NCBI GenBank assembly: GCA_002429485.1
Contig: DIZX01000016.1
Span: 14,889-78,888, forward strand
Direction of reading: 5' to 3'
Length of the DNA: 64,000 bases
Origin: Patescibacteria group bacterium UBA6017
Lineage (GTDB): Bacteria; Patescibacteriota; Saccharimonadia; UBA4664
Each line of letters opens with the position of its first letter. The first letter of the stretch is position 1. Positions 1 to 36,275 of the stretch are shown piece after piece. Under the pieces are notes generated by a model, which did not search any database, was not told where the DNA came from, and saw only the letters and a list, made by a program, of their open reading frames with translations. The translations under genes were made by a program, and so were the position numbers.

Positions 1-161
1 TCCGAGTGCGGGACTACCCCGATCTCGATCCGGATCTGGTGGGTGAGATCTTGAGCGTGCAGCACCAGTTCGCTGAGGACCGGGCAGAGGCCCGCAAACG
101 CACCGAGCAGCTCATTAACCGCTGGGCCGCCAGCCAACCCGATCCAAGGGCGACCGACTGA
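1..161 (+). CDS. 3' end of an upstream gene cut off by the window edge. Frame 3 is open from position 3 to the TGA at 159-161, which overlaps the ATG of the next gene (TGATG).
   Basis: Frame 3 is open from the window edge to 161. Its translated end is ...RVRDYPDLDPDLVGEILSVQHQFAEDRAEARKRTEQLINRWAASQPDPRATD*. The stop overlaps the start of the ATPase gene, which is typical of translational coupling. The high-GC codon usage matches the neighbouring genes. Confidence 0.4.
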   Translation, partial: RVRDYPDLDPDLVGEILSVQHQFAEDRAEARKRTEQLINRWAASQPDPRATD

Positions 162-2101
162 TGCTCACCCTTGATGGCCTGACGATCCAGGACTTCGGTC
201 CGTATCGCGGACGGCAAGAAATTAAATTCACTCGTGACCGCGGGGTATACATCTTGTACGGGCCGAATGGTCGCGGAAAGACGACGCTGCATAACGCCTT
301 TCGGTACGCGCTGTATGGCGAGATTCTTGGTCGCCGCCGAGCCGAGCAGGCCCGCGAGTTGGCCAACTCTGAGGCTCGCAAGCAGGCGGGCTTCGGCTCG
401 TTTGAGACGACGTTGGACTTTGGGCACCAGGGCGCCCGCTACCGACTGACCCGGCGGTACGACGAGCGCGAGAAACCCCACGAGTTGACGCTCCTGGAAC
501 GCGATGGCGTGCCTATGTCTCAGGATGACTCCGAGAAAGCGCTCCAGGTCATTGCGCCACACTCGGTAAGCCAGTTCTTCCTTTTCGACGGCGAGTTGCT
601 CCGTCAGTACGAAAACCTGCTTGACCGGGACAGTGAAGAAGGGGCTGCTCTGGAGCAATCGATCGAGCGCGTCCTCGGTATCCCGATCGTTGGCAATGCC
701 AAGGCTGACGTCACCGGAGTGTGGCGGCTCGCCGAGAAACAGATGGCCGAGCAGTACGCCGCCCACGATGAGACCCGGCGCATGGGCCTATCGCTCAATG
801 AGGCCCAGGAAGTACGCGCTCGGCTGCAGGAGGGTCACGACGAGATTGCCTTGCGGATCGATACAGCGAAGGAGCGTGTTGCCGAGCTAGAAGGCATGCT
901 GCGCGAGCAGCAGAAGGCCGAGCGTTTGCTAGGCAATCTCGATCGGCTCCGTACCCAGCAAGCGGACTTAGAACTTCGTGAAAAGGAGGGCGTCGATGCT
1001 CTGAACGAGCTGTCCGGCGATCTGTGGAAGGCGGTGCTGGCGCAGTCGGCAGCCGATCGGTTGGTGTCGGTCGACGCCGAGGTGCAGATAGCAGAGACTG
1101 ACCTGCGGTCCGTTGCAGCTGCGGTCAGAGACCTGGCACATCTGCAAGCCGAGCATGACTGCCCCGTCTGTCGCCGTGATGTACCCGAGGACCTACGCAA
1201 TTCGCTGATCGCAAGCTTGGAGGCAACTGCCTCGGACGCCCATCACGAGGCCGTTGACGCTCGCCTTGATCGGGCACGTAGTAAGCGCCGGACGCTGCAG
1301 GTCCTCGCTTCTGAGGACGCGCGCCTCGTCGTAGAGCGGGATCGGAACCTCCGCTCGCTGCGGTTGGAGCGGCAGGAAGTGCGGGAGGACATCGCAGGTC
1401 TCGAGCAGCAGTTGTCCGAGATCGGCGAGGACGAGTTGCGCGCCCTTACCGGTGAGCGAGATCAGCGGCAGGCGCAGATTCTGCGCGACAAGGAACGGCT
1501 TGAGGACAGTGGCGTCAAGCTCCGTGAGCAGGAGCTGGTGATAGAGGATCTGAAGCGCCGCTTGCGCAAGCAGCCCGTGCGGCCCGACCACACAATCGAG
1601 GTGAAGGACCAAGTGAGTCAGGCCTTGATGGGTCTCTTTGGCGGGGCGATTGACGCCTACCGCGTCAAGCTGCGTCGCCGGGTCGAAGAGCGGGCATCGG
1701 AAATCTTCCGCCAGCTCGCTTCCGAGCCGGACTACGTGGGGCTGCGCATCACTGATCGGTATGGGTTGGAGATCATTGACTCCGACGGCGAAGTGGTCAG
1801 GCGATCAGCCGGCTACGAGCACCTGGTTGCCCTGTCCCTGATCGCGGCCCTGCAGGACAGTGCGGCGGTGCGCGGCCCGGTGATCATGGACTACCCGTTT
1901 GGACGGCTTGACACCGACAACACGGCGCATGTCGTGGCAGCCCTGCCGCGTATGGCCCGCCAGGTCATTCTGCTGTCGTTCGATGGAGAGTTCGATCGCC
2001 ACGCGGCTCTGACTGCGCTCGGCAGCAATCTGGTGGCCGAGTATGAGCTAGAGCGCGTCACCTCGAAGCACACTCGCATCCAGCCTCGGAGGACCATCTG
2101 A
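161..2101 (+). CDS. SMC/Rad50-family ABC-type ATPase with a central CxxC zinc-hook and short coiled coils (DndD / LmuB / SbcC-like). Probably a defense-system ATPase.
   Basis: N-terminal Walker A GPNGRGKTT. FFLFDGELL motif. A long coiled-coil region rich in heptad E/R/L. Mid-protein hook HDCPVCRRDVPEDL. C-terminal signature-like SAGYEHLVALSLIAAL, Walker B PVIMDYPFGRLD and LLSFDGEF. TGATG overlap with the genes on both sides. Confidence 0.8.
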   Translation: MLTLDGLTIQDFGPYRGRQEIKFTRDRGVYILYGPNGRGKTTLHNAFRYALYGEILGRRRAEQARELANSEARKQAGFGSFETTLDFGHQGARYRLTRRYDEREKPHELTLLERDGVPMSQDDSEKALQVIAPHSVSQFFLFDGELLRQYENLLDRDSEEGAALEQSIERVLGIPIVGNAKADVTGVWRLAEKQMAEQYAAHDETRRMGLSLNEAQEVRARLQEGHDEIALRIDTAKERVAELEGMLREQQKAERLLGNLDRLRTQQADLELREKEGVDALNELSGDLWKAVLAQSAADRLVSVDAEVQIAETDLRSVAAAVRDLAHLQAEHDCPVCRRDVPEDLRNSLIASLEATASDAHHEAVDARLDRARSKRRTLQVLASEDARLVVERDRNLRSLRLERQEVREDIAGLEQQLSEIGEDELRALTGERDQRQAQILRDKERLEDSGVKLREQELVIEDLKRRLRKQPVRPDHTIEVKDQVSQALMGLFGGAIDAYRVKLRRRVEERASEIFRQLASEPDYVGLRITDRYGLEIIDSDGEVVRRSAGYEHLVALSLIAALQDSAAVRGPVIMDYPFGRLDTDNTAHVVAALPRMARQVILLSFDGEFDRHAALTALGSNLVAEYELERVTSKHTRIQPRRTI

Positions 2102-2484
2102 TGGCCGATCTCAAGAACATCGCTCTGACCATCGAGGCAACCCAGACTGCCACCGACCTCAAGCATTGGCTCGGCATCGTCGAGCAGATGGACCGCATCC
2201 GGCTAGGCTTCGCTTACGCGGTCAGGAACAGCCTGGACCTCACGCGCGATGACACTTTCGGCACCCGGGGCGGTAGTAACTACGACACCGGCGGCCTCGA
2301 CCAGGACGGCCTGATGGCCGAGACCGTAAAGATCTACTATCCGGACCCGGACGTCGCCGCCGAGCCCTACCGCGCCGTTGAGACGCTCATGAATAAGGGC
2401 CTGCGCCTACTCGGGGAGCATTGGCAGCAGGGCCTCATCGGCAGTGTCGGCGATTTGATGGCCAGCGCGGCCGACGCGGAATAG
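2101..2484 (+). CDS. Small acidic partner protein (127 aa) of the zinc-hook ATPase. Function unknown.
   Basis: Its start overlaps the ATPase stop codon (TGATG at 2099-2103). Codon usage matches the ATPase gene. A promoter-like AT-rich gap follows. No motif was recognised. Confidence 0.55.
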   Translation: MADLKNIALTIEATQTATDLKHWLGIVEQMDRIRLGFAYAVRNSLDLTRDDTFGTRGGSNYDTGGLDQDGLMAETVKIYYPDPDVAAEPYRAVETLMNKGLRLLGEHWQQGLIGSVGDLMASAADAE

Positions 2485-2624
2485 AGTCACTAATTGTGCG
2501 GATTTGTATCCAATAGCACAATCTTGACTTATCCACAGGCCTTTGAAAGAATAAGCGCTAGCGACATTGTCAGCCGGAACTACTCGCAACACTTTATCAC
2601 CGAGCTAATCGTAAGGGCGCACAC
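2485..2624 (+). promoter_or_regulatory. AT-rich intergenic region, probably holding the promoter of the four-gene Qat-like operon.
   Basis: This is the only AT-rich gap in a stretch that is otherwise about 62% GC. It contains TTGACT ... TATCCA-like hexamers and ends just before the ATG at 2625. Confidence 0.3.
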
Positions 2625-4409
2625 ATGACCGGCGAGACGAGAACTCCGGACCTTCACCTCTGGTCCGATGAACCGGCAGTAACAGATTTACTTTCCTTCA
2701 GCGCGATCGCTGACACGGTCGTTGACGCCCTCTTCGACGAGAACCTCAATCCTGTGGCGCTTGGCATTTCTGGCGCCTGGGGCAGTGGCAAGACCACCGT
2801 ACTCAACCTGATCGACCAGCGCATCAACGCTCGATCTACAGATCAGCAGACAATCGTTGTGGTCCGCGCCGACCCGTGGCGCTATGACCCGACCAAGGGC
2901 CCGAAGGAGAGCCTGATTGTTGCCGTACTGACGGCACTGCAGGGCGAATTTAAGGGCTCAGATGCGGCCCAGAAGTCCGCCGGTGAGGCGCTCAAGAGGC
3001 TTGCGAAGCGGGTCAACTGGTCGAAAGCCATCAAGATGGCAGCGACCACGGCCCTAACCGCGCAACTTCCTTCGCTGGATGCAGTTATGGGCTTGGTCAG
3101 TGACGAGCCAGAAACGCTCGGTTCCGAGAAGGGCATGGACCAGTTCCGCGAGGAGTTCGAGGCGCTCCTAAAAGAAGAGGCGCTCGCCCACGTCATGCAA
3201 GTGGTCGTCCTGGTGGACGATCTAGACCGCTGCTTGCCAGAAACCGTCGTCGAGACGCTAGAAGCCATCCGGTTGTTCTTGTCGGCGGAGAACATGTCAT
3301 TCGTCATCGCCGCGGATGAGGCCCGAGTTGCAGAGGCGATCCAGCAAAAGCTGCAGATGCCCGACCCGAGCGACGGCACGGAGAGCATTGCCAGCCTTTA
3401 CTTGCACAAGATTGTGCAGACGACGGTGCCGTTGCCAGCCCTCAGCTACTTCGATACTCGCGCCTACCTTTTCTTGCTGCTCGCCCGAATGCAGGTTGAA
3501 ACGGATGTGTTTGGCGCGCTGGTTACCTCGTGCGACGTTCTTCGTATCGACGCCGGAAGCCTTGACGACCTCGCGCTACCAGAGGGTATTGATCTCTCGT
3601 CTCCTATGGCCACAGCCTCAAGACTCACGCCTATTCTCTACGAAAAGTTCCAGGGCAATCCTCGACGCATCAAGCGCTTCATGAACGACCTATATGTTCG
3701 ACAGTCCGTGGCCGCGAGACGGGGTCACAAGCTAGAGCCCGACGCCATCGCCAAGTTGATGGTGATCGAGCGGCTATTCCCGGCTGACTTCGGCGTCCTA
3801 ATGGACTGGCTCGCGTCCGGCAATCTGCGCGGCAAACTAGATGCGCTGCAATTATTCACGAAGGGGGAGCAGCGCGAGAAGGGAAAAGCCGAAGAAACCG
3901 AATTTTCCGGCACGATGTTGCGCTGGGCCAAGCTCCCACCCGAATTCGATACGGCTATGGTCTCGGGATATCTGACACTGGCGGCTGCGTTCCAGGGCCG
4001 TCTCCTAGTAGATGAGTCGCTGTCAGAGTCTCTGCGCGACCTCGCCGCTGCACTGACCTCGAGTTCGCAGGTCGAACGCAGTTCAGTGAAGGACGGTGAG
4101 ATTAAGGCGCTCCCGCCCGGAGACGTCGCGGAGCTGCTCGCCCACTTAGGTAGACGCATGCGCGACGACTCTTCGATCCAGCTCCCGACGGTGAACGCGA
4201 TCGTATCGATCGCTACCCTGCACCCTAGCGAGTTGGGTCGAGCTCAGCGCGCACTGTTGATGTTGCCTGGCAACGATGTTCGGTCATCCAGTGTCCTTAT
4301 CTTCAAAGACCTGACCGCCGACTACGATGATGTGCTCGAGAGCTGGTCGAAGAGCTCGGACGCCACGACGAAGCGGGCGATCTTGTCCGTGCGCAGCAGG
4401 AAGGCCTGA
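2625..4409 (+). CDS. qatA: KAP-family P-loop NTPase, first gene of a Qat-type defense operon (QatA-like).
   Basis: Walker A GISGAWGSGKTT close to the N-terminus. Walker B-like VVVLVDDLDRC. Size of 594 aa. It is followed, with start/stop overlaps, by a Gly-rich protein, a QueC-like protein and a TatD-like protein. Confidence 0.75.
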   Translation: MTGETRTPDLHLWSDEPAVTDLLSFSAIADTVVDALFDENLNPVALGISGAWGSGKTTVLNLIDQRINARSTDQQTIVVVRADPWRYDPTKGPKESLIVAVLTALQGEFKGSDAAQKSAGEALKRLAKRVNWSKAIKMAATTALTAQLPSLDAVMGLVSDEPETLGSEKGMDQFREEFEALLKEEALAHVMQVVVLVDDLDRCLPETVVETLEAIRLFLSAENMSFVIAADEARVAEAIQQKLQMPDPSDGTESIASLYLHKIVQTTVPLPALSYFDTRAYLFLLLARMQVETDVFGALVTSCDVLRIDAGSLDDLALPEGIDLSSPMATASRLTPILYEKFQGNPRRIKRFMNDLYVRQSVAARRGHKLEPDAIAKLMVIERLFPADFGVLMDWLASGNLRGKLDALQLFTKGEQREKGKAEETEFSGTMLRWAKLPPEFDTAMVSGYLTLAAAFQGRLLVDESLSESLRDLAAALTSSSQVERSSVKDGEIKALPPGDVAELLAHLGRRMRDDSSIQLPTVNAIVSIATLHPSELGRAQRALLMLPGNDVRSSSVLIFKDLTADYDDVLESWSKSSDATTKRAILSVRSRKA

Positions 4410-5227
4410 TGGGAACCAGCGGAGCCTTCAAAGGAAGCGGCGGAAAGGATGCCGGCAGCCTCCGGGACGCCATCAGTGATTGGCTGGGAGGTGCCGACGA
4501 GGCTCAACAGGGTCAAGCCGACACGACCACAACAGACCAGCCGGCCGAACCCGACCACTTGAACCCCAACGCCCTCGCCCCCGCGGCTCGACTCTGGCTG
4601 CGAGGACCATCGGGCGGTTCCAAGGGTTCGGGAAGCGGAGGCGGGGGTGCAACCAGTGGGGGCGGTGGCTCCGCGGGTGGCGGTAGGTCATCTGGTGGTG
4701 TCCAGCGGACAGTCGGACGCGTTTCCGGACCTGCCGGGCGTGCAGGCGCACTGGCACGTGCCTTTGCGACGGGTGACAGCCCGGCGCTAGAAGAAGCGGG
4801 CCTTAACTACGATGAACTTCGCGCGCTCAATGATCCGCTTGAAGTGGGTCGCAAGATCACCGAGGTGGCTTTTGAAGGCCAACCTGACGGCAGTATCGAA
4901 GACGGCGAGGCACGCTTAATCGTAGCTGAGCTCGTCTCGTGGATCATGGATGCGCCTGACGGTGAGCGGCCCAGTCCCGACCAGATTGTCCGCTACTCAA
5001 TCGAACTTATGATTGCTAAAGCAGCCCTTACCGAAGTGGGCGATACGATCCGTAAGCAATCCGACCCCGTCAAGCGCCAAGAAGCTGAAGCAGAAGTGCG
5101 CCGCGGAGCCAAGGTCCTGGCAGGAAAGCTAGATCTTGATGGAGTAGGACCTAGTGCATCGGACATCGCTCGTAGTATCGAGACAAGTGTGCAGCAGCTG
5201 GTCGATATTCACGGGGACCCGACATGA
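4409..5227 (+). CDS. qatB: Glycine-rich protein of the Qat-type operon (QatB-like).
   Basis: Its ATG overlaps the qatA stop (ATGA). Starts MGTSGAFKGSGG and carries a long Gly/Ser tract (GGSKGSGSGGGGATSGGGGSAGGGRSSGG). The C-terminal half is helical. The next gene starts inside its last codons. Confidence 0.65.
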   Translation: MGTSGAFKGSGGKDAGSLRDAISDWLGGADEAQQGQADTTTTDQPAEPDHLNPNALAPAARLWLRGPSGGSKGSGSGGGGATSGGGGSAGGGRSSGGVQRTVGRVSGPAGRAGALARAFATGDSPALEEAGLNYDELRALNDPLEVGRKITEVAFEGQPDGSIEDGEARLIVAELVSWIMDAPDGERPSPDQIVRYSIELMIAKAALTEVGDTIRKQSDPVKRQEAEAEVRRGAKVLAGKLDLDGVGPSASDIARSIETSVQQLVDIHGDPT

Positions 5228-6501
5228 CCCGACTTGCTCTCGTCATGGATCGAACGCGGATACCGGCCGACACGGACGAGGTCTTCCTTTGGGATGGGGG
5301 AGCCGACCAAAGCTTCAAGACTGGGCTCACTCCCACACTTGCAGAACTAGGCGACGTACCCCCGCTCAATGCGGACGCTGTGAGGATCGCGCTTACAGCC
5401 TACGCGGCCGACCACAGCGTGAAGCGGGAACGTGGCGGTTCCAACTGGAATCGTCGGACTTTGGATCTGCTGGTACCGGTCAGTGATCCCGACGTCTGGG
5501 CAGGTGCGGCCACGGAGCTCATCGATGCTCTCAATTTCCTCACCGGTGACAATTGGAGCCTAAGATTCGTCCAGCATGAAGTTGAGGACAACCAGCACCA
5601 GCTTCTCGCCGATGCACCAGCCCGCGTCGTTTTACTCAGCGGGGGTGCCGATTCGGGAACGGGTGCGGTCATCTCTGCGAGTTCTCTTACACTCAACGAG
5701 TCGCACATTCTCGTATCTCATTCGAGTTCGGGCGCAACCAGCGGTGCGCAGAGAGCCGTCCATGACCGCCTCGAAGCTCTCTTCCCGGGAAAGCAGCCTA
5801 TCCATCGCCAAATCTTCATAGGTCGGGCCAAGAAACGAATCGATGGTACGAACTATCCAGACGAACCATCCAGCCGATCGAGATCATTCTTATTTCTGAC
5901 GCTTGGTCTGGCGGCCGCTGCCCGGTCGGGAGCCACCCTCTGGATCCCAGAGAACGGGTTTGCATCACTAAACCCTCCGCTCGGTCCTGAGCGACTGGGT
6001 GCACTCTCCACTAGGACAACGCACCCATGGTTCCTTTGGAGGCTCCAACAGGCCCTCTCGAAAGTCGGCGCGCACGCCGATCTCGAGAATCCCTTCCAAC
6101 TCGAGACGAAAGGCGAGATGTTTACGCGCGCCTCGGGTGTCCTCGGGAAAGATGGCGCGTCCGCGTTTCTCAGCACTACAAACTCGTGTTCTCACACCGA
6201 CCAGAACTACCAAGGCGTGCCGAGTGGAACTCACTGTGGTGTCTGCTTCGGATGCATCGTCAGGCGCGCTTCCTTCAAGGCCTCCGGGCTCCATGACCAG
6301 ACCCGGTACTTGAGTGCCGAGAGCCGCTACGCCACGTATACCGCGAGCCATTCCATCGTGGAAGCGGTCCGGGACTTCGTAACCCGTGGAATCGACGACG
6401 CCACTGTGCTTGCTATGCCCCTGCCTCCAGGCCTGCTAGCTGGCGGAGCAAAGGAGCTGTGCGTACGCGGCTTGAATGAAATGGAGTCCTACCTGGCATG
6501 A
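5224..6501 (+). CDS. qatC: QueC-like PP-loop ATPase (7-cyano-7-deazaguanine synthase family), QatC-like.
   Basis: PP-loop motif VVLLSGGADSGTGAV (SGGxDS). C-terminal Zn-binding-type cluster HCGVCFGCIVRR (CxxCxxC). Overlaps both of its neighbours. Confidence 0.8.
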   Translation: MTRLALVMDRTRIPADTDEVFLWDGGADQSFKTGLTPTLAELGDVPPLNADAVRIALTAYAADHSVKRERGGSNWNRRTLDLLVPVSDPDVWAGAATELIDALNFLTGDNWSLRFVQHEVEDNQHQLLADAPARVVLLSGGADSGTGAVISASSLTLNESHILVSHSSSGATSGAQRAVHDRLEALFPGKQPIHRQIFIGRAKKRIDGTNYPDEPSSRSRSFLFLTLGLAAAARSGATLWIPENGFASLNPPLGPERLGALSTRTTHPWFLWRLQQALSKVGAHADLENPFQLETKGEMFTRASGVLGKDGASAFLSTTNSCSHTDQNYQGVPSGTHCGVCFGCIVRRASFKASGLHDQTRYLSAESRYATYTASHSIVEAVRDFVTRGIDDATVLAMPLPPGLLAGGAKELCVRGLNEMESYLA

Positions 6502-7274
6502 AGTTGCCACCACTCGACACGCATGCACACGTGGCTCTCGAGGTCCCGACGCGGGACCTCGAGAGCCTCGGCGCAGCGGTGTTGATCGCTACGCGCAGCG
6601 CAGACGAGTTTGAGAGGGTTAGAGCACGGCATGACCTGGTGAGTGTTTGGGGGCTCGGGTGCCACCCTTCACTGGTTGGTGTCCAGCGATCGTTCGATAG
6701 CGAAAAATTTCGCGCCTTACTTGAATTCACACCATACGTCGCCGAAGTTGGGCTTGATGGGGATTCTCGGGTTCCGCTGGAAAATCAGACCGAAACGCTG
6801 AAAGCTATCCTTGATTGCGTTCGACAAATGCCCAGGGTCGTTTCACTGCACAGCTTCCGCGCGACCACGGACCTACTTAGGGTCCTTGATGTTCAGGATG
6901 GCACGTCGGCCCTCATCCTTCATTGGTGGCTTGGCACGAGGGAGGAGACGACGTGGGCGCTCGAGCTCGGCTGTTACTTCTCGGTCAACTACTCGATGAT
7001 TCGCTCGACGAGCCAATGGCGACAAATTCCACTCGACCGTTTACTTGTCGAGACCGACCATCCATCGGGAGACCGGTTCTCGAGCAGCCCGCGGCAGCCG
7101 GGCCGCGTTCAGGACGTCGAGCGGGCTCTCGGAAAACTCCACGGCCTAAGTGTTGAGAAGGTCCGACTCCAACTCTGGCAGAACTTCGCAGCACTGACAT
7201 CGGCGACCAGTACAGCGCAGATGCTGCCCATCCCCCTACGCAAGATGATCGCGTTCGCACAACAGTCCCAGTAG
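6498..7274 (+). CDS. qatD: TatD-family metal-dependent hydrolase/nuclease, QatD-like.
   Basis: N-terminal LDTHAHV (the TatD DxHxH metal site). HWWLGT motif. C-terminal LLVETDHPS (the TatD ETDxP motif). Its start overlaps the qatC stop. Confidence 0.8.
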   Translation: MKLPPLDTHAHVALEVPTRDLESLGAAVLIATRSADEFERVRARHDLVSVWGLGCHPSLVGVQRSFDSEKFRALLEFTPYVAEVGLDGDSRVPLENQTETLKAILDCVRQMPRVVSLHSFRATTDLLRVLDVQDGTSALILHWWLGTREETTWALELGCYFSVNYSMIRSTSQWRQIPLDRLLVETDHPSGDRFSSSPRQPGRVQDVERALGKLHGLSVEKVRLQLWQNFAALTSATSTAQMLPIPLRKMIAFAQQSQ

Positions 7275-7396: not shown

Positions 7397-7846
7397 TCAT
7401 GTCCCTTTTTGATCGTGTGGTTGACGCATGACCACGCCCCGCCCACGTAACGCCCTCCAGACCGTGGCGCCAGCGACCTCGAACCGTTCGCCCAGCCGGG
7501 CCAGCGACCACCCCTCGCCGTAGAGGCGGACGGCCCGTTCGACCTGCCCTGGGTCGAGGCCTCGTTGTCGAGTCGGCACTCCGGCTCGCCTGATGATCTC
7601 GGAGACCGTCACTCGGTGGATGCCGTGGGCGGCGGCAAGATCCTTCATGTTCGCGCCCGCTACGTACGCCAGGACAATCTCGGTCTGATCGGCGTACGCC
7701 AGTCGGCGCTGTGGCGTGACGTTCAGGCGGACAGCTCCGGAGCTGCTCGGGCCCGGCAACTTCGCCCGGTCTGCCATTGCCTCGTCCGCAAGCGTGACTA
7801 TTTGGGCCGCGAGGGGGTTCGATAGACAACCCCTCAGTTCCACCAT
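7397..7846 (-). mobile_element. Helix-turn-helix protein resembling the N-terminal DNA-binding part of an IS transposase or resolvase (orfA-like). There is no catalytic DDE partner, so it is probably a mobile-element remnant at the edge of the island.
   Basis: Two HTH-like segments: NMKDLAAAHGIHRVTVSEIIRRAG and GWSLARLGERFEVAGATVWRALRGRG. No adjacent ORF with a DDE/recombinase domain. It sits exactly where GC content changes from ~62% to ~40%. Confidence 0.45.
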
Positions 7847-9551: not shown

Positions 9552-9896
9552 ATGAAGTTTGTAAATCAATCCCAAGCAGTCGAATTCCGTAACGGTGATA
9601 CCTGTGTCGCATTAGAGTATCAGCTAAATGACGCCGATATCAACGGAGCGGTAATTCGACTATCTGGGCGCTATCCAGAGCAAGGTTTTGCTGTTAATGA
9701 AGTATCGAAAGAACTGGTGTATGTCGTCAAAGGCCAAGGGACGCTTACCGTTGGTGAGACTAGTACTCGTTTAAGTGAAGGTGACATGGCATTGCTTATG
9801 CCTGGCGAGAAGTATTTCTTCGATGGTGAGCTTGTAATGATGATGCCCTGCGCCCCAGCCTGGACGCCGCAGCAGCATAAACTGGTTAGCGATTAA
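9552..9896 (+). CDS. Cupin-domain protein.
   Basis: Small beta-barrel protein with a Gx5HxHx...E-like region (RLSGRYPEQGFAVNE ... LMPGEKYFFDGE). 114 aa. Confidence 0.5.
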   Translation: MKFVNQSQAVEFRNGDTCVALEYQLNDADINGAVIRLSGRYPEQGFAVNEVSKELVYVVKGQGTLTVGETSTRLSEGDMALLMPGEKYFFDGELVMMMPCAPAWTPQQHKLVSD

Positions 9897-12253: not shown

Positions 12254-12329
12254 GAATAATGGTTATCCCCAAGGAGCCAGCGGCAAGATATCAAAATAAG
12301 GCATAAGACTTTTTTGTTATACTTTCCCT

Positions 12330-23320: not shown

Positions 23321-26119
23321 ATGAAAAAATACGATCCCAAGACTATTGAACCCAACTGGCAGCAAACCTGGGCCGACACTAAGCTATATGCTGCCGTCAC
23401 GGGCGATACCGCTCGCGAAAAATACTATATGCTCACCGAATTTCCGTATCCTTCCGGCGCCGGTCTTCACGCTGGGCATACCCGCGAATATACCCTCGGC
23501 GATGTAATAGCCCGCCACAAACGCATGCAGGGCTTCAACGTGCTCTATCCTATGGGTTACGACGCTTTCGGTTTGCCCACAGAAAATTTCGCCATCAAGC
23601 ACAAAATCCGCCCCCAAGACGCCACTAGCCAAAATGTCGAGGTCTTCCGCCAGCAATTCGATTCCCTCGGCCTTAGCTTCGACTGGGATCGCGAGGTCAA
23701 CACTACCCACCCCGATTACTACCGCTGGACGCAGTGGCTATTCCTTAAATTCCACGCCGCCGGCCTCGCCTATCAAGCTGAAATGCCCATCAACTGGTGC
23801 CCGAAAGAAAAAACCGGTCTCTCCAACGAAGAAGTGGTCGACGGCAAGCACGAGCGCTGCGGCACCCCGGTCGAAAAAAAGCTCATCAAGCAATGGATGC
23901 TCAAAATCACTGCCTACGCCGACCGCCTCATCGAGGGTCTCAAGACCGTCGATTACCCCAGCCGCATCGCCGACCAGCAAGTCAACTGGATCGGCCGCTC
24001 CGAAGGCGCCGAGATTGATTTCTTGGTGGGGGAGTCGGGTGTGGCACCCAAAGACAGCCTCAAATTCACCCCCGAGCTTACCAAACTCGTCCTTGACGGC
24101 AGCAAAACCAACACCGTCCGCCTTGAGCCCAAAAACCTCCAAGTGGGCGACATTGCCAGCCTCATTACGCGATTGAGCCCCACCGACACTCAGGTTTTTG
24201 CCCAGGCCAAAGTGACCAAAATTGAAACAATGCCGCTCGGTCAAATTCCGCTCGACCTCGACGGGCACGAACCGTTCGCTTCTACCGACGAGCAGCTGGC
24301 CGCCTATCGCGGCTATTACGGCGACACGGTTGGATTCGATACCGAGTTCACGATCTACTATTTTGACTCGGTCCAGCCCACCGTCACCGTCTACACCACC
24401 CGCCCCGACACCCTCGCCGGCGCAACTTTCTTGGTGCTCGCTCCTGAGCATGCTGCGGTTGCCCAAATCACTACTCCCGACCAGCGTTCCCAGGTCGAAG
24501 CCTACGTTAAAAAGGCTCAGGGTGAATCCGAAATCGACCGTCAAAACACCGACCGCACCAAAACGGGCGTTTTCACCGGAGCCTACTCCGCGAACCCCAT
24601 TACCGGCGCCAAAGTACCAGTCTGGATTGCCGACTACGTCCTCGCCAGCTACGGCACCGGCGCCATCATGGCTGTCCCTGCCCACGACGAGCGCGATTTT
24701 GCCTTTGCCAAAGCCTTTAAGCTGGATATTCAGCAAGTAGTCTCGGGCGATGATTTGCCCGCGGTGGCCACTGGCAAGCTCATCAATTCCGGACAGTTCG
24801 ACGGGCTCGAGGGTGCCGAGGCCAAGCGGGCTATCGTCAAATATCTCGAGGACAAAGGCAGCGCCAAGACGGCCGTCAAATACAAACTCCGCGACTGGAT
24901 CTTCTCCCGCCAGCATTACTGGGGCGAGCCCATTCCGATCGTCCACTGCGAACACTGCGGCGCCGTGCCAGTGCCCGAGGATCAGCTGCCTATAACTTTG
25001 CCCGACGTGGAGCACTATGAACCTACCGAAACGGGGGAGTCCCCGCTCGCCGCCATCACCGACTGGGTCAATACTGCCTGCCCGAAGTGCGATAAACCCG
25101 CCAAGCGCGAGACCGACACAATGCCCAACTGGGCGGGTTCGAGCTGGTATTATCTGCGCTATATGGATGCCCATAATGACCAAGCCTTTGCGAGTCCTGA
25201 AGCCCTCAAATACTGGGGTGAGGTCGATTTGTATCTCGGCGGCATGGAGCACACCACGCTCCACTTGCTCTACTCGCGCTTCTGGCACCAATTCTTTTAC
25301 GACCAGGGCCTAGTGCCCACCCCCGAGCCCTACGCCGCCCGCCGCGGCCAAGGCATCGTGCTGGCCGCCGACGGCCGTAAAATGAGTAAATCCATCGGCA
25401 ACGTAGTGAATCCCACCGATATCATTGCCAGCTATGGCGCCGACACGCTGCGCCTCTACATCCTGTTTATGGCCCCCTACGACGAAACCACCCCTTGGAG
25501 CGAAGAGCGCCTGGCTGGTGCTTCGAGGTTTGTGTGGCGCGTTTGGGCGCTCGCCCAGGAGCTCATTGAGGCTCATGCCTTCACTCGAGCCATGAAGCCC
25601 GGCCCCGGCGACGCCTTCGAAACCGAAGTCGACCGTGCTACCCACAAAGCCATCAAAAAGGTCCACGATGAGCTGGGCGGCATGCGCTTCAATACCGCCG
25701 TCAGCGCCCTCATGGAATACGTGAATTTCCTCTCAGATGCCAAAACCAAGGCTCGTTTGCTCGAGCCGGCATCGGCCGCCCTAGCTTGGCGCGCCCTCAA
25801 TACCCTCGTCCAACTCCTCGCCCCTATTACCCCGCATATGTCCGAAGAGCTCTGGCACCAACTTGGCTACCCGGGCAGTGTGCACGTGGCCGGCTGGCCC
25901 GAGTATGACCCCGAGCTCATCAAGGACGACGTGGTGGTGATTGTGGTGCAGGTGAACGGCAAGGTGCGGGCCAATTTAGCTATGACACCCGACGCTACCC
26001 AGTCCGAGTTAGCTGAGGCCGCCAAGGCCGACCCCAATGTGGCCAAATACCTTCAAGACGGCCAACTGCTCAAGACCATCGTCGTTCCGCGCAAGCTCGT
26101 AAATTTCGTCGTAAAGTAG
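23321..26119 (+). CDS. leuS: Leucyl-tRNA synthetase.
   Basis: HIGH-type motif (PSGAGLHAGH). KMSKS motif (RKMSKSIGNV). CP1 editing domain. 932 aa. TATAAT -10 lies 17 nt upstream. Confidence 0.95.
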   Translation: MKKYDPKTIEPNWQQTWADTKLYAAVTGDTAREKYYMLTEFPYPSGAGLHAGHTREYTLGDVIARHKRMQGFNVLYPMGYDAFGLPTENFAIKHKIRPQDATSQNVEVFRQQFDSLGLSFDWDREVNTTHPDYYRWTQWLFLKFHAAGLAYQAEMPINWCPKEKTGLSNEEVVDGKHERCGTPVEKKLIKQWMLKITAYADRLIEGLKTVDYPSRIADQQVNWIGRSEGAEIDFLVGESGVAPKDSLKFTPELTKLVLDGSKTNTVRLEPKNLQVGDIASLITRLSPTDTQVFAQAKVTKIETMPLGQIPLDLDGHEPFASTDEQLAAYRGYYGDTVGFDTEFTIYYFDSVQPTVTVYTTRPDTLAGATFLVLAPEHAAVAQITTPDQRSQVEAYVKKAQGESEIDRQNTDRTKTGVFTGAYSANPITGAKVPVWIADYVLASYGTGAIMAVPAHDERDFAFAKAFKLDIQQVVSGDDLPAVATGKLINSGQFDGLEGAEAKRAIVKYLEDKGSAKTAVKYKLRDWIFSRQHYWGEPIPIVHCEHCGAVPVPEDQLPITLPDVEHYEPTETGESPLAAITDWVNTACPKCDKPAKRETDTMPNWAGSSWYYLRYMDAHNDQAFASPEALKYWGEVDLYLGGMEHTTLHLLYSRFWHQFFYDQGLVPTPEPYAARRGQGIVLAADGRKMSKSIGNVVNPTDIIASYGADTLRLYILFMAPYDETTPWSEERLAGASRFVWRVWALAQELIEAHAFTRAMKPGPGDAFETEVDRATHKAIKKVHDELGGMRFNTAVSALMEYVNFLSDAKTKARLLEPASAALAWRALNTLVQLLAPITPHMSEELWHQLGYPGSVHVAGWPEYDPELIKDDVVVIVVQVNGKVRANLAMTPDATQSELAEAAKADPNVAKYLQDGQLLKTIVVPRKLVNFVVK

Positions 26120-33788: not shown

Positions 33789-36275
33789 GTGTTTCTTCGG
33801 CGAGTAACAATTACCGGCTTCAAATCATTTGCCAATAAAACCGTGATCGATCTCGAGCACGGTATCACTGGCGTGGTCGGCCCCAACGGCTCGGGCAAGA
33901 GCAATATTGCCGACGCCATCCGCTGGGCGATGGGGGAGCAGGGCAAGGCTCGCTTGCGGCTGGGTGATCGCGATGAAGTGGTCTTTGCCGGCACCGACAA
34001 GCGCGCCAAGGCGAGCTTCGCCGAAGTAATTCTATTGTTTGACAATGAAGACGGTTCATTTCCGCTCGATCTTACCGAGGTAGAAATTTCGCGGCGAATG
34101 TACCGCAGCGGCGAAACGGACTATCGGCTGGCCGGCCGTAGCGCGCGGTTGAGCGATATTCAGGCGCTGCTGGCCGGGGCCGGGGTGGGCGCGAGCAGTT
34201 ACGCCGTAATTGGCCAGGGGATGATTGATTCGATTCTGATGAGCTCGCCATCCGAACGCAAACTGCTGTTTGAGGAGGCAGCAGGCATCCGCGGGCCTGA
34301 GCTCGGGCGCGAGGCCGCTGTACGAAAACTCACAGCCACAGCCGGCAATCTCACGCGTCTGCGCGATATTTCGGCGGAGCTGGCGCCTCGCCTTGGCGCC
34401 CTGGAGCGGGCCGTGGCCGCCGCCGACGAGCAGACCCGCCTCACGTCGCGAGTAACTGAGCTGCGTACTGCCGTGGCGAGTGCCCAGCATGCCCACTGGA
34501 CGCTCGTGGAAGCCGGTGAGGCCCATCGGTCGGCAGAGCTGCTGCAATCGGCTCACCGCCTGCGCCACGAGCTGCGCGCGCTCGAACGCACCCGTGAGCA
34601 GCAGGATCGTGCCGAAGCGCAGGCCCTTGGCCAGCGCCAGCAGCTCCAATCTGGGCTGGCCGCCCTCGAGCTCCGTCGCGACTCAGCTGCCGCGGACCTC
34701 GCCGCCTCCCAGTCCGCCACCAGCGCCGCCGCTCGCAATATCCAGTCGGCCGGCGAGCTCAAAATACGCCTCGCCCGCGCCGAAGCCGACCTGGCTGCGG
34801 CCGAGGGCCGACTCAAGGACTCTCGCGCCGAGCTGGCTGCCAGTGCCGTAGGCGCCGCCCGCGCCGATAAGGCCGTGGACAAAGCTGCCCACGAGGTTGC
34901 GGCAGCTCAATCCGCTTTGGTGGCCGTCCGCAACGGGATCAACGATGGCTCTCGCGACCAATATCTGGATCACGCCCTCCAAATACTCAAAACGCTGGCC
35001 CTCGGGCTGGGAACGCCGCAGTACGATGAAGGTCGGGTGCGCCTGCTTGTACACAAGGCCGGGCGCCTACTCAGTCATGCTACCCGCAGCGGTGCGGCCG
35101 AGCTTCTTGCCGAGCTCAAAACCGCCCAGAAACACCTTGAAGCCGCGATGTCGCGCCGCGAAACCGCCGTGGAGCACCAGACCAACGTGTCTATTACCGG
35201 CCGTTCGCTTGAGATTGATATTACCCATCTGGAGGGTGAAGTTGTCCGGCTAACTCAACGCCGAAATGATATTTTGACCGAGCTGAAGCCGCTAGAATTG
35301 GCTTCATCTCAGCTCAAATCACTTCAGTCAGCCGAGCACACTGCCGTTAAGACCTTGCAGGACATCACCAAACAGCTCGAAGTTCAACGTTCTCAACTCG
35401 CCGATCTAAGTGTCGGTTCCGGTGATATCTCTGTCCATTCCAAGACCCTCACTGCCCTCGAACTCACGAGAGCCGCCATTTCCAATGTTGCCCGCGATCA
35501 TACTCAGGCCGGGCAAAACCGACTCGCTGCCGCGTCCGAACTGGCTGCCACCGTCCGCCGTGCCGCCGAGTGGGCCGTCACTATTACCTCCTCGGACGCT
35601 CATGAAGACCTCGCAGTCCTGACCGATCAGCTCGCCCGCGCCGAAACTCTCCTCGAGGCCCGCACTCAGGTGTATCAGGAGCAATTGGTCGAATACGAGG
35701 AGGTCTCCACTCGCCAAACCGAGCTTGCCGCCCAAATTAGCGACCTCGAATCTGCCGAATCCGACCTGCGAGCCCTCGTGACCGAGCTCGATACGCTCAT
35801 CCGCTCGCGTTTCAAGGAAAATTTCCAAGCCTTGGCTGAGCAATTCAAGATCTACTTTGGCCGCCTCTTCAACGGCGGCACCGCTTCGCTCGAGCTCGCC
35901 GAGACTGACGATGGCACTTATGGCATTACTATCAAGGCCAGTCCCAACGGTAAGCGCCTCACGACTATAGCGGCCCTGTCCGGCGGCGAACGAGCCTTGG
36001 CTGGTGTGGCCCTAGTGGCCGCCATTATGCGCGTCAACCCCAGCCCCTTCGTGGTCCTCGACGAAATCGACGCCGCCCTCGACGAGGCCAATTCGGGCCG
36101 TCTCGCCGGCATTCTCACCGAACTTCAGCAGTATTCGCAGCTCATCGTCATTACCCACAACCGCCAGACCATGAAGGCCGCCCGCGTGCTCTTTGGGGTT
36201 ACAATCAATGAGCATCACATCTCGCACCTCATCTCCATGCGCCTCGAACAAGCCACCCAGCTCGCCGCCCGCTGA
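33789..36275 (+). CDS. smc: Chromosome segregation SMC protein (short form, 828 aa).
   Basis: N-terminal ITGFKSFANKT...VVGPNGSGKSNI Walker A. Long coiled coils. C-terminal LSGGERALAGVALV (signature) and VVLDEIDAALD (Walker B). GTG start. Confidence 0.85.
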   Translation: MFLRRVTITGFKSFANKTVIDLEHGITGVVGPNGSGKSNIADAIRWAMGEQGKARLRLGDRDEVVFAGTDKRAKASFAEVILLFDNEDGSFPLDLTEVEISRRMYRSGETDYRLAGRSARLSDIQALLAGAGVGASSYAVIGQGMIDSILMSSPSERKLLFEEAAGIRGPELGREAAVRKLTATAGNLTRLRDISAELAPRLGALERAVAAADEQTRLTSRVTELRTAVASAQHAHWTLVEAGEAHRSAELLQSAHRLRHELRALERTREQQDRAEAQALGQRQQLQSGLAALELRRDSAAADLAASQSATSAAARNIQSAGELKIRLARAEADLAAAEGRLKDSRAELAASAVGAARADKAVDKAAHEVAAAQSALVAVRNGINDGSRDQYLDHALQILKTLALGLGTPQYDEGRVRLLVHKAGRLLSHATRSGAAELLAELKTAQKHLEAAMSRRETAVEHQTNVSITGRSLEIDITHLEGEVVRLTQRRNDILTELKPLELASSQLKSLQSAEHTAVKTLQDITKQLEVQRSQLADLSVGSGDISVHSKTLTALELTRAAISNVARDHTQAGQNRLAAASELAATVRRAAEWAVTITSSDAHEDLAVLTDQLARAETLLEARTQVYQEQLVEYEEVSTRQTELAAQISDLESAESDLRALVTELDTLIRSRFKENFQALAEQFKIYFGRLFNGGTASLELAETDDGTYGITIKASPNGKRLTTIAALSGGERALAGVALVAAIMRVNPSPFVVLDEIDAALDEANSGRLAGILTELQQYSQLIVITHNRQTMKAARVLFGVTINEHHISHLISMRLEQATQLAAR

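Follow-up and report, generated by a model that had tools for sequence, protein, structure and literature searches.

PbeABCD is a four-gene module whose tested representative is the haloarchaeal dndCDEA-pbeABCD locus, which lowers plaquing about 10^4-fold (Xiong et al., Nat Commun 2019; PMC6459918). All four pbe genes are required there, and the activity depends on phosphorothioate (PT) modification of the host; the virus still adsorbs, and replication of its DNA is blocked. The same study found that 155 of 320 "solitary" pbeAC pairs adjoin methyltransferases. A computational description from 2024 in Nucleic Acids Research (PMC10853773) equates PbeABCD with the CxC-DndE system, in which PbeA is an HKD endonuclease fused to a superfamily 2 (SF2) helicase, PbeB a rapidly evolving small protein, PbeC a zinc-hook sister clade of DndD, and PbeD the DndE cognate. 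In some of these systems, the phosphorothioation genes are replaced by circularly permuted cytosine-N4 methylases and an MTaX1 gene. The locus described here occupies nucleotides 1-2484 of a 64,000-nucleotide stretch of contig DIZX01000016.1, the whole of which is called the window. It is read as the 3' part (pbeB'-pbeC-pbeD) of a methylation-linked PbeABCD system, alternatively named the CxC-ABC-ATPase/DndE-anchored defence system, with a probability of roughly 85%. This figure applies to the identity of the system, and the mechanistic steps taken alone are held with considerably less confidence. The locus is a further, unannotated example of a known, already described kind of system, and the architecture given in PMC10853773 is exactly that found here.

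The zinc-hook ATPase PbeC and its partner PbeD

The 646-amino-acid ATP-binding cassette (ABC) ATPase is assigned by its sequence matches to PbeC, the zinc-hook "CxC" sister clade of DndD. It matches the PADLOC PbeC model (PDLC02747) over its full length with an E-value of 4e-192, and the best 25 PADLOC models for it are all PbeC or DndD. Pfam recognizes AAA_23 and SMC_N, along with a sub-threshold match to Rad50_zn_hook at residues 329-355 (19.1 against a threshold of 24.3), and a profile built from the PbeC family matches the Rad50 hook structures 1l8d and 5gox.

The motifs expected of such an enzyme are retained when it is aligned with 34 homologues, reaching down to 26% identity. Invariant positions include N36, G39 and K40 of the P-loop, the block F139-E145 that follows Q138 in QFFLFDGE (with G144 nearly so), and S549, G551 and D577 in the C-terminal head, where E553 is nearly invariant. 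C334 and C337 are the sole cysteines of the protein; both are invariant, and a mid-protein CxxC is present in 34 of the 34 PbeC-type homologues. More distant members of the family (for example, L046 and L036) have CxC instead, whereas neither motif occurs in any of the five neighbouring DndD-type paralogues checked, two of which are confirmed as DndD by NCBIfam.

The AlphaFold2 model of PbeC (predicted local distance difference test score of 87.3) has a split ABC head and two long helical stretches, 159-330 and 343-519. The CPVC loop is the sole break between them, flanked by helices 285-330 and 343-356. These limits give a coiled coil of about 360 amino acids with the CxxC at its apex, and the region from SAGYE to VIMD sits in the strand/helix half of the head. 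Structural matches to the model found with Foldseek are led by Rad50, followed by SMC, JetC, MukB and LmuB, a likeness that reflects the generic coiled-coil ABC fold. We know of no solved structure of DndD or PbeC.

PbeD, the protein encoded directly downstream of the ATPase, is acidic, with an isoelectric point (pI) of 4.5. Profile searches with it return no sequence-family match, including none to the DndE model. A total of 48 related loci (L004-L051) were compared, three found by exact look-up and the other 45 by scanning one genome for each species. In 44 of them, a profile iterated locally from PbeD homologues picks up a small open reading frame (ORF) directly downstream of the ATPase, and its retrievals include proteins that pass the DndE equivalog cutoff. 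PbeD also superposes on DndE structures. PbeD is the DndE cognate of this locus.

Much of this had been anticipated in the original prediction, which was made from the letters of the window. Its reading of three ORFs coupled by TGATG at 159-163 and 2099-2103 agrees with the sequence, and the Walker A motif, central CPVC and C-terminal Walker B/signature half that it described in the 646-amino-acid protein are present and conserved across the 34 homologues. It was right to liken this protein to Rad50, as a zinc-hook ABC ATPase well below an SMC protein in length; its estimate of about 400 amino acids of coiled coil was too long by comparison with the AlphaFold2 model. The acidic character that it ascribed to the 127-amino-acid downstream protein is confirmed by the pI.

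The recovered operon, PbeA and PbeB

Within nucleotides 1-2484, three ORFs are joined by TGATG overlaps at 159-163 and 2099-2103, as read directly from the sequence, and the first of them is cut by the window edge. An exact-sequence look-up places the ATPase on a 231-kb metagenome contig (JGI 3300011992, Ga0120146_1000002; hereafter L001), in which position 9841 corresponds to position 1 of the window. The two overlap by 12.1 kb with one mismatch, and the missing upstream DNA was read from this near-identical contig. It supplies the complete pbeB gene together with pbeA and mtaX1 (Table 1). All four junctions of mtaX1-pbeA-pbeB-pbeC-pbeD overlap, three through TGATG and one through ATGCCTGA, and the overlap at every junction indicates a single translationally coupled operon of five genes. 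The genes are real rather than chance ORFs, because each protein has more than 100 homologues and the gene order is kept in 30 other loci.

On the opposite strand of L001, divergent from the operon, lie genes for a 323-amino-acid N6_N4 methylase, a 91-amino-acid ORF and a DUF1643 protein. In the closest relative (L053, ENA ERZ25039553 contig_8272), PbeC is 90% identical and 6.6 kb of DNA can be aligned at 80.6% identity. Homology between the two DNAs begins at about L001 4961 and stops exactly at 12324, which corresponds to window position 2484, the stop of pbeD. These limits define the complete unit as the methylase block plus mtaX1-pbeABCD, about 7.4 kb in all (L001 4961-12324).

Table 1. 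Positions of the Pbe genes, motifs and adjoining features in the window and, where marked, on contig L001
Feature	Position	Strand	Description
pbeB, 3' part	1..161	+	last 52 codons at nt 3-158; stop TGA 159-161
pbeC	161..2101	+	646 aa; coiled-coil ABC ATPase of the zinc-hook "CxC" clade
Walker A / P-loop	260..286	+	GPNGRGKTT, PbeC residues 34-42, direct reading
CPVC	1160..1171	+	PbeC residues 334-337
C-terminal ABC head motifs	1805..1891	+	signature-like SAGYE (residues 549-553) to Walker B VIMD (574-577)
pbeD	2101..2484	+	127 aa; acidic DndE-fold protein (tandem ribbon-helix-helix), cognate partner of PbeC
spacer	2485..2624	.	140 nt, AT-richer; ends the Pbe operon
mtaX1	L001 7026-7649	same as pbeC	207 aa; MTaX1-domain protein
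pbeA	L001 7649-9796	same as pbeC	715 aa; helicase; beyond the window
pbeB, complete	L001 9789-10001	same as pbeC	70 aa
DUF1643 gene	L001 4974-5800	-	beside a very acidic 91-aa ORF

PbeA is the likely effector of the system, a predicted HKD nuclease fused to an SF2 helicase. The protein matches the PADLOC PbeA model (PDLC02707) with an E-value of 7e-193, and Pfam recognizes ResIII, SWI2_SNF2 and Helicase_C in its motor domain. The helicase part matches the NCBIfam model TIGR04095, "DNA phosphorothioation system restriction enzyme" (E 5e-93), and the N-terminus matches NF042964, "phospholipase D-like anti-phage protein" (E 8e-26). In an alignment of 23 homologues, helicase motifs I (GxGKT), II (DExH), III (SAT) and VI (QRxGR) are invariant, as is the HKD signature H144-x-K146-x-G...F-x-G-S-x-N165. 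A sequence search of the PDB with the N-terminal domain returned nothing meaningful, and the HKD assignment is based on this motif conservation, the PADLOC PLD_Helicase model and NF042964.

PbeB is an acidic protein (pI 4.5) with 52 of its 70 residues encoded inside the window, and searches of the NCBIfam, Pfam and PADLOC profiles give no family match for it. In 27 of 29 loci, pbeA and pbeC are separated by a small ORF of 62-82 amino acids, nearly always acidic. The ORFs at this position can be aligned across loci and share a common [DE]-D-R motif.

The associated methylase, MTaX1 and DUF1643 genes

The methylase can be aligned along its entire length with M.PvuII, an N4-cytosine methyltransferase (PDB 1boo; E 4e-122). 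It has motif IV (SPPF) in its N-terminal part and FGGSNTTG in its C-terminal part, and by sequence it is classed as an M.PvuII-like enzyme of the circularly permuted N4-cytosine type. Neither R.PvuII nor C.PvuII was detected. The PvuII site CAGCTG is not depleted in the window, where it occurs 24 times and 18.9 +/- 3.9 occurrences would be expected; that the methylase targets this site is itself a guess. The product of mtaX1 matches PF20296 (E 3e-14). The 10 kb upstream on L001 and the Pfam-annotated genes of the window, about 74 kb together, were checked for dnd modification genes (DndC resembling phosphoadenosine phosphosulfate reductase, or a cysteine desulfurase), and none was found.

DUF1643 genes travel with the methylase/Pbe module in four loci, at varying positions (L001; L004 5320-5826; L012 12271-12843; L021 7852-8547). 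The DUF1643 protein may be an accessory component; the accessible sections of PMC10853773 do not mention it.

Conservation across related loci

PbeA is encoded directly upstream of a PbeC-type ATPase in 30 of the 48 related loci, and the order PbeA-(PbeB)-PbeC-PbeD recurs in these 30 other loci. MTaX1 stands immediately 5' of PbeA in 15 of the 30, and an N6_N4 methylase of the same family lies within 10 kb in 20, its position and orientation being variable. Five of the 30, from metagenome-assembled genomes (MAGs) of Gammaproteobacteria type, have a DndD-type ATPase and a DndE-like ORF instead; DndD/DndE is confirmed in two of these five (L014 and L015). The methylase/MTaX1 layout of the present locus reappears in Polymorphospora rubra at 71% identity and, at 32-35% identity, on the unrelated contigs L005 and L006, which carry other defence islands. 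Automated annotation labels the homologues "AAA family ATPase", "DndD" or "hypothetical protein".

Several of these copies have notable surroundings. The distant Pbe/MTaX1 copy on L005 (3984-6996 and 16295-17080) has a prokaryotic Argonaute (Piwi)-SIR2 pair and an MTaX1-HNH fusion next door, and that on L006 (14266-16597) lies beside Cas1 and a RES-domain gene. The MTaX1-HNH fusion fits a role for MTaX1 as a reader of DNA modification. One module copy appears to have decayed (L028 2897-7955), with PbeA split into three ORFs and PbeC into two; the intact copy of the window contrasts with this inactive-looking one.

Proposed mechanism and alternative explanations

We infer every step of the scheme proposed for the methylase-linked copy, which is tentative and stands a little short of even odds. 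The methylase would place an N4-methylcytosine (m4C) mark on host DNA, possibly at a CAGCTG-like site. PbeC, dimerized through its CxxC zinc hook, would spend ATP to clamp or scan DNA, joined by PbeD, whose two ribbon-helix-helix (RHH) domains may give DNA or sequence recognition, while MTaX1 would aid in telling modified from unmodified DNA. On unmarked invading DNA, the complex would engage PbeA, and its SF2 motor, perhaps together with its intact HKD nuclease site, could then impose a replication block, DNA cutting, or both. PbeB, small and acidic, may be an obligatory regulatory or adaptor subunit. A broader proposal joins these parts: the zinc-hook ATPase and its DndE-like partner would couple ATP-driven scanning to the m4C mark, either reading or directing it; restriction would stall replication without classical cleavage; and the Pbe and Qat island would have been acquired by a Saccharibacteria-like epibiont from its actinobacterial hosts. 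Taken as a whole, this conjunction is doubtful. For the present copy, the analysis establishes the gene identities, the intact motifs, the folds and the conserved synteny; antiviral activity, the need for pbeA-D and the dependence on modification are all taken from the phosphorothioate-linked homologue.

Several observations weigh against the identification or the mechanism. PbeC scores 178.7 bits on the NCBIfam DndD model (TIGR03185), below the cutoff of 245.85, and PbeA scores 312.7 on TIGR04095 against a curated cutoff of 600; true DndD proteins of related loci reach 458-680 bits, and true DndE proteins 112-129 bits (L014, L015 and L044). No family model names PbeB or PbeD on sequence alone. 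Zinc binding and hook-mediated dimerization of PbeC are predicted from a monomer model and motif conservation, and the suggestion that the methylase may recognize a CAGCTG-like site is a guess from M.PvuII similarity. The search for dndA/C and dndFGH covered about 74 kb rather than a whole genome. In the experimentally tested system, no viral DNA cleavage was visible, an awkward finding if the effector is a nuclease, even though the present PbeA has intact HKD residues; the same work considers that Pbe modules without dnd genes are possibly inactive (PMC6459918). No paper reporting an experimental test of a methylase-linked Pbe system was found in the searchable literature.

Four other explanations can be set against the methylation-linked restriction system proposed here. 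If PbeC and PbeD formed a modification arm that brings the N4-cytosine methylase to chosen sites, with PbeA and MTaX1 as a separate restriction arm, the relation of the pair to DndD and DndE, which act in modification, would be readily explained, as would the co-occurrence of the methylase with the module in 20 of 30 loci. This division of labour is nonetheless unlikely: deletion of archaeal pbeC and pbeD abolished defence while PT was supplied by the separate dndCDEA genes (PMC6459918), and the methylase is a complete, stand-alone M.PvuII-like enzyme, divergently encoded and variably placed from locus to locus, unlike the fixed and overlapping mtaX1-pbeABCD. Abortive infection is also improbable. 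Under that model, put forward in PMC10853773, PbeB restrains PbeA until a phage trigger removes it, the HKD nuclease then destroys host DNA, and methylation is accessory. A small, acidic, fast-diverging PbeB in a conserved position and the lack of viral DNA cleavage in the tested system (PMC6459918) agree with it, but in that system PT-modified virus escaped and activity needed host PT, which points to discrimination of self from non-self by modification (PMC6459918), and the tight linkage of methylase and MTaX1 suits restriction-modification logic better.

That the module is a non-functional remnant, a "solitary" Pbe module bereft of its phosphorothioate partner, is an option that Xiong et al. 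list for pbeAC pairs lacking dndCD close by, 58% of the total (PMC6459918), and no dnd genes were seen in the roughly 74 kb covered here. It is nevertheless very unlikely for this copy, which has all five ORFs intact and shows conservation at each of the catalytic and motif residues checked. The same methylase/MTaX1 architecture is moreover maintained in distant taxa at 32-90% protein identity, and a truly decayed copy, the fragmented L028, looks different. The probability is close to negligible that the ATPase belongs to a Lamassu-like system, to canonical Dnd modification, or to housekeeping SbcC, Rad50 or RecN. Its generic coiled-coil ABC fold does draw Foldseek matches to Rad50, SMC, JetC and LmuB, and its N-terminal head weakly matches Rad50 and SbcC profiles. 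Yet the best 25 PADLOC models are PbeC or DndD, the context offers no LmuA/LmuC, SbcD/Mre11, DndA/B/C or RecN, the DndD score falls below its cutoff, no CxxC occurs in the DndD-type paralogues checked, the Rad50/SbcC models give 20-35 bits, and the distribution is patchy and island-borne with a foreign GC content.

On the larger question of what the module is, the original prediction was partly right. It had offered Lamassu-like, Dnd-like or unclassified as options; the Dnd-like one holds, and the other two give way to the PADLOC matches of PbeC (4e-192) and PbeA (7e-193) and to the system described in PMC10853773. Its defence reading stands, the upstream gene being no housekeeping gene and the ATPase having no RecN/SbcC affiliation, and so does its separation of the module from Qat. 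It was also correct that the window edge truncates the first gene, of which 52 of 70 residues lie inside, and the upstream extension it called for recovered the gene in full (L001 9789-10001). It had considered that truncated gene as the possible effector, a role that does not fit the 70-amino-acid acidic PbeB; the probable effector is PbeA, farther upstream and outside the window. The hidden Markov model searches that it recommended for the window proteins returned the PbeC model as best for the ATPase and left the small proteins without a family match.

The locus reveals no new kind of system. The analysis names a module that goes unrecognized in automated annotation, completes its set of genes and points to residues that can be tested. 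It also provides a clean, compact (about 7.4 kb) example of a methylation-coupled Pbe, a type predicted but never tested in the searchable literature. Such a locus is suited to asking whether m4C stands in for phosphorothioate, whether the PbeA HKD nuclease is used, and what roles the zinc hook and PbeB play. If the host assignment is true, it would also represent acquisition of a defence island by an epibiont of the candidate phyla radiation (CPR) from its host phylum.

The surrounding island and its origin

The Pbe unit has a GC content of 63-66% and the Qat genes 59-62%, as compared with 45-56% in the flanks. The spacer after pbeD contains one sigma-70-like site (2524-2552, plus strand; 0.1 expected) ahead of qatA, and no intrinsic terminator was found in it. 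Just 5' of this promoter-like site, an inverted repeat, ATTGTGC-N16-GCACAAT (window 2493-2522), was read by eye. It could be an operator or a product of chance, its arms being 7 nt long and below the length threshold of the repeat finder.

QatABCD (window 2625-7274), directly downstream, is a separate neighbouring system, and it is not found beside Pbe in the other loci inspected. Its proteins are divergent: QatA reaches 289 bits where the cutoff is 600, QatC 279.9 where it is 280, and QatD 138 where it is 230, and the 272-amino-acid protein at the QatB position has no match. A gene for a 149-amino-acid helix-turn-helix (HTH) protein follows Qat on the minus strand (window 7397-7846). Just 5' of the island, L001 1-4379 holds a very large ORF (more than 1800 amino acids by gene call) that has no Pfam or PADLOC match and a host-like GC content of about 54%. 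No tRNA gene was found at the island borders in L001. Elsewhere in the window, immediately 3' of RNase III, an 828-amino-acid ORF with SMC_N and AAA_23 (33789-36275) occupies the classic rnc-smc position, yet it falls well short of the length usual for a bacterial SMC.

The Pbe genes are closest to those of Actinobacteria, namely Streptomyces, Micromonospora, Polymorphospora, Segeticoccus and Cellulomonas. In the closest relative (L053 2122-21323), the module lies between a phage-type integrase and an FtsK/SpoIIIE gene, with DUF397 and HTH_31/DUF5753 genes present. The region resembles an integrative (conjugative) element of actinomycetes, and this hints at the way in which the module is mobilized. 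The leucyl-tRNA synthetase of the window (23321-26119), which has an ASCH-domain insert, finds its closest named relatives in Candidatus Saccharimonadia, Saccharibacteria and Patescibacteria MAGs at 58-75% identity. The defence island could have passed from an actinobacterial host to a Saccharibacteria-like epibiont. Assignment to such an epibiont is tentative, since genes for LeuA, 5-enolpyruvylshikimate-3-phosphate synthase, ornithine transcarbamylase, PhaC, cytochrome b and MMPL proteins, all of them unusual in CPR bacteria, are also present in the window.

Comparison with known systems

Among coiled-coil ATPases, Rad50 and SbcC resemble PbeC in that an antiparallel coiled coil interrupts the ABC head and bears a CxxC hook at its apex, whereas the coiled coil of PbeC is much shorter and its context is a defence island. 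Rad50/SbcC was rejected on scores of 20-35 bits against cutoffs of 847-1087 and on the lack of SbcD/Mre11 nearby, leaving the zinc-hook feature alone in common; the RecN repair ATPase was set aside as the locus has no RecN context. An SMC protein proper is distinguished by the criterion given in PMC10853773, the apex of PbeC being a CxxC loop on a coiled coil of about 360 residues. LmuB of Lamassu is likewise an SMC-like ABC ATPase in phage defence, and the model matches its structures 9uxh and 9hqx. Lamassu was rejected, with no LmuB among the best 25 PADLOC models and no LmuA or LmuC match in the neighbouring genes, and the small partner of PbeC has a DndE fold instead.

Restriction systems share individual parts with the locus. 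The methylase aligns with that of PvuII restriction-modification (R-M), and the PbeA motor resembles the HsdR and Res subunits of type I and III enzymes. Unlike PvuII R-M and the type I/III enzymes, PbeA has an HKD nuclease rather than PD-(D/E)xK, and Pbe also needs the ABC ATPase/RHH pair and a small protein. Two further candidates were dismissed: Hma (HmaA helicase, HmaB m5C methylase, HmaC ATPase), as the present methylase is of the N4-cytosine type and no Hma model is among the PADLOC matches listed, and MADS, for which there is one weak mad8 match, to QatA, and none to the Pbe proteins.

The Dnd systems are closer. Like DndD-DndE, the locus encodes a coiled-coil ABC ATPase of about 650 amino acids followed by a small tandem-RHH protein, from genes that often overlap. 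In comparison with DndABCDE, the partners are PbeA, PbeB and MTaX1 in place of DndA, DndB and DndC, and PbeC has an apical CxxC that the DndD-type paralogues checked do not. Canonical DndD/DndE was rejected on the sub-cutoff TIGR03185 score given above, the lack of a match to the DndE model TIGR03184, and the lack of a DndC partner.

The only tested Pbe system, dndCDEA-pbeABCD of Haloterrigena jeotgali A29 (PMC6459918), has the same order pbeA-B-C-D, with similar components: PbeB is 66 amino acids long there and 70 here, PbeD 152 and 127, and the PADLOC PbeA and PbeC models cover the present proteins over their full length. The archaeal system, however, relies on phosphorothioate made by dndCDEA, whereas the present one is bacterial and is paired with MTaX1 and an m4C methylase of the M.PvuII type, no dnd genes having been seen close by. 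The closest counterpart is the methylase/MTaX1 CxC-DndE system of the Aravind laboratory (PMC10853773, Fig. 4A iv). The hook of the present locus is CxxC rather than a literal CxC, and its PbeB can be aligned across loci and is not obviously disordered. From that system, as the text of the paper describes it, nothing essential differs: all of its components are present here, and no phosphorothioation genes were found in the stretch covered.

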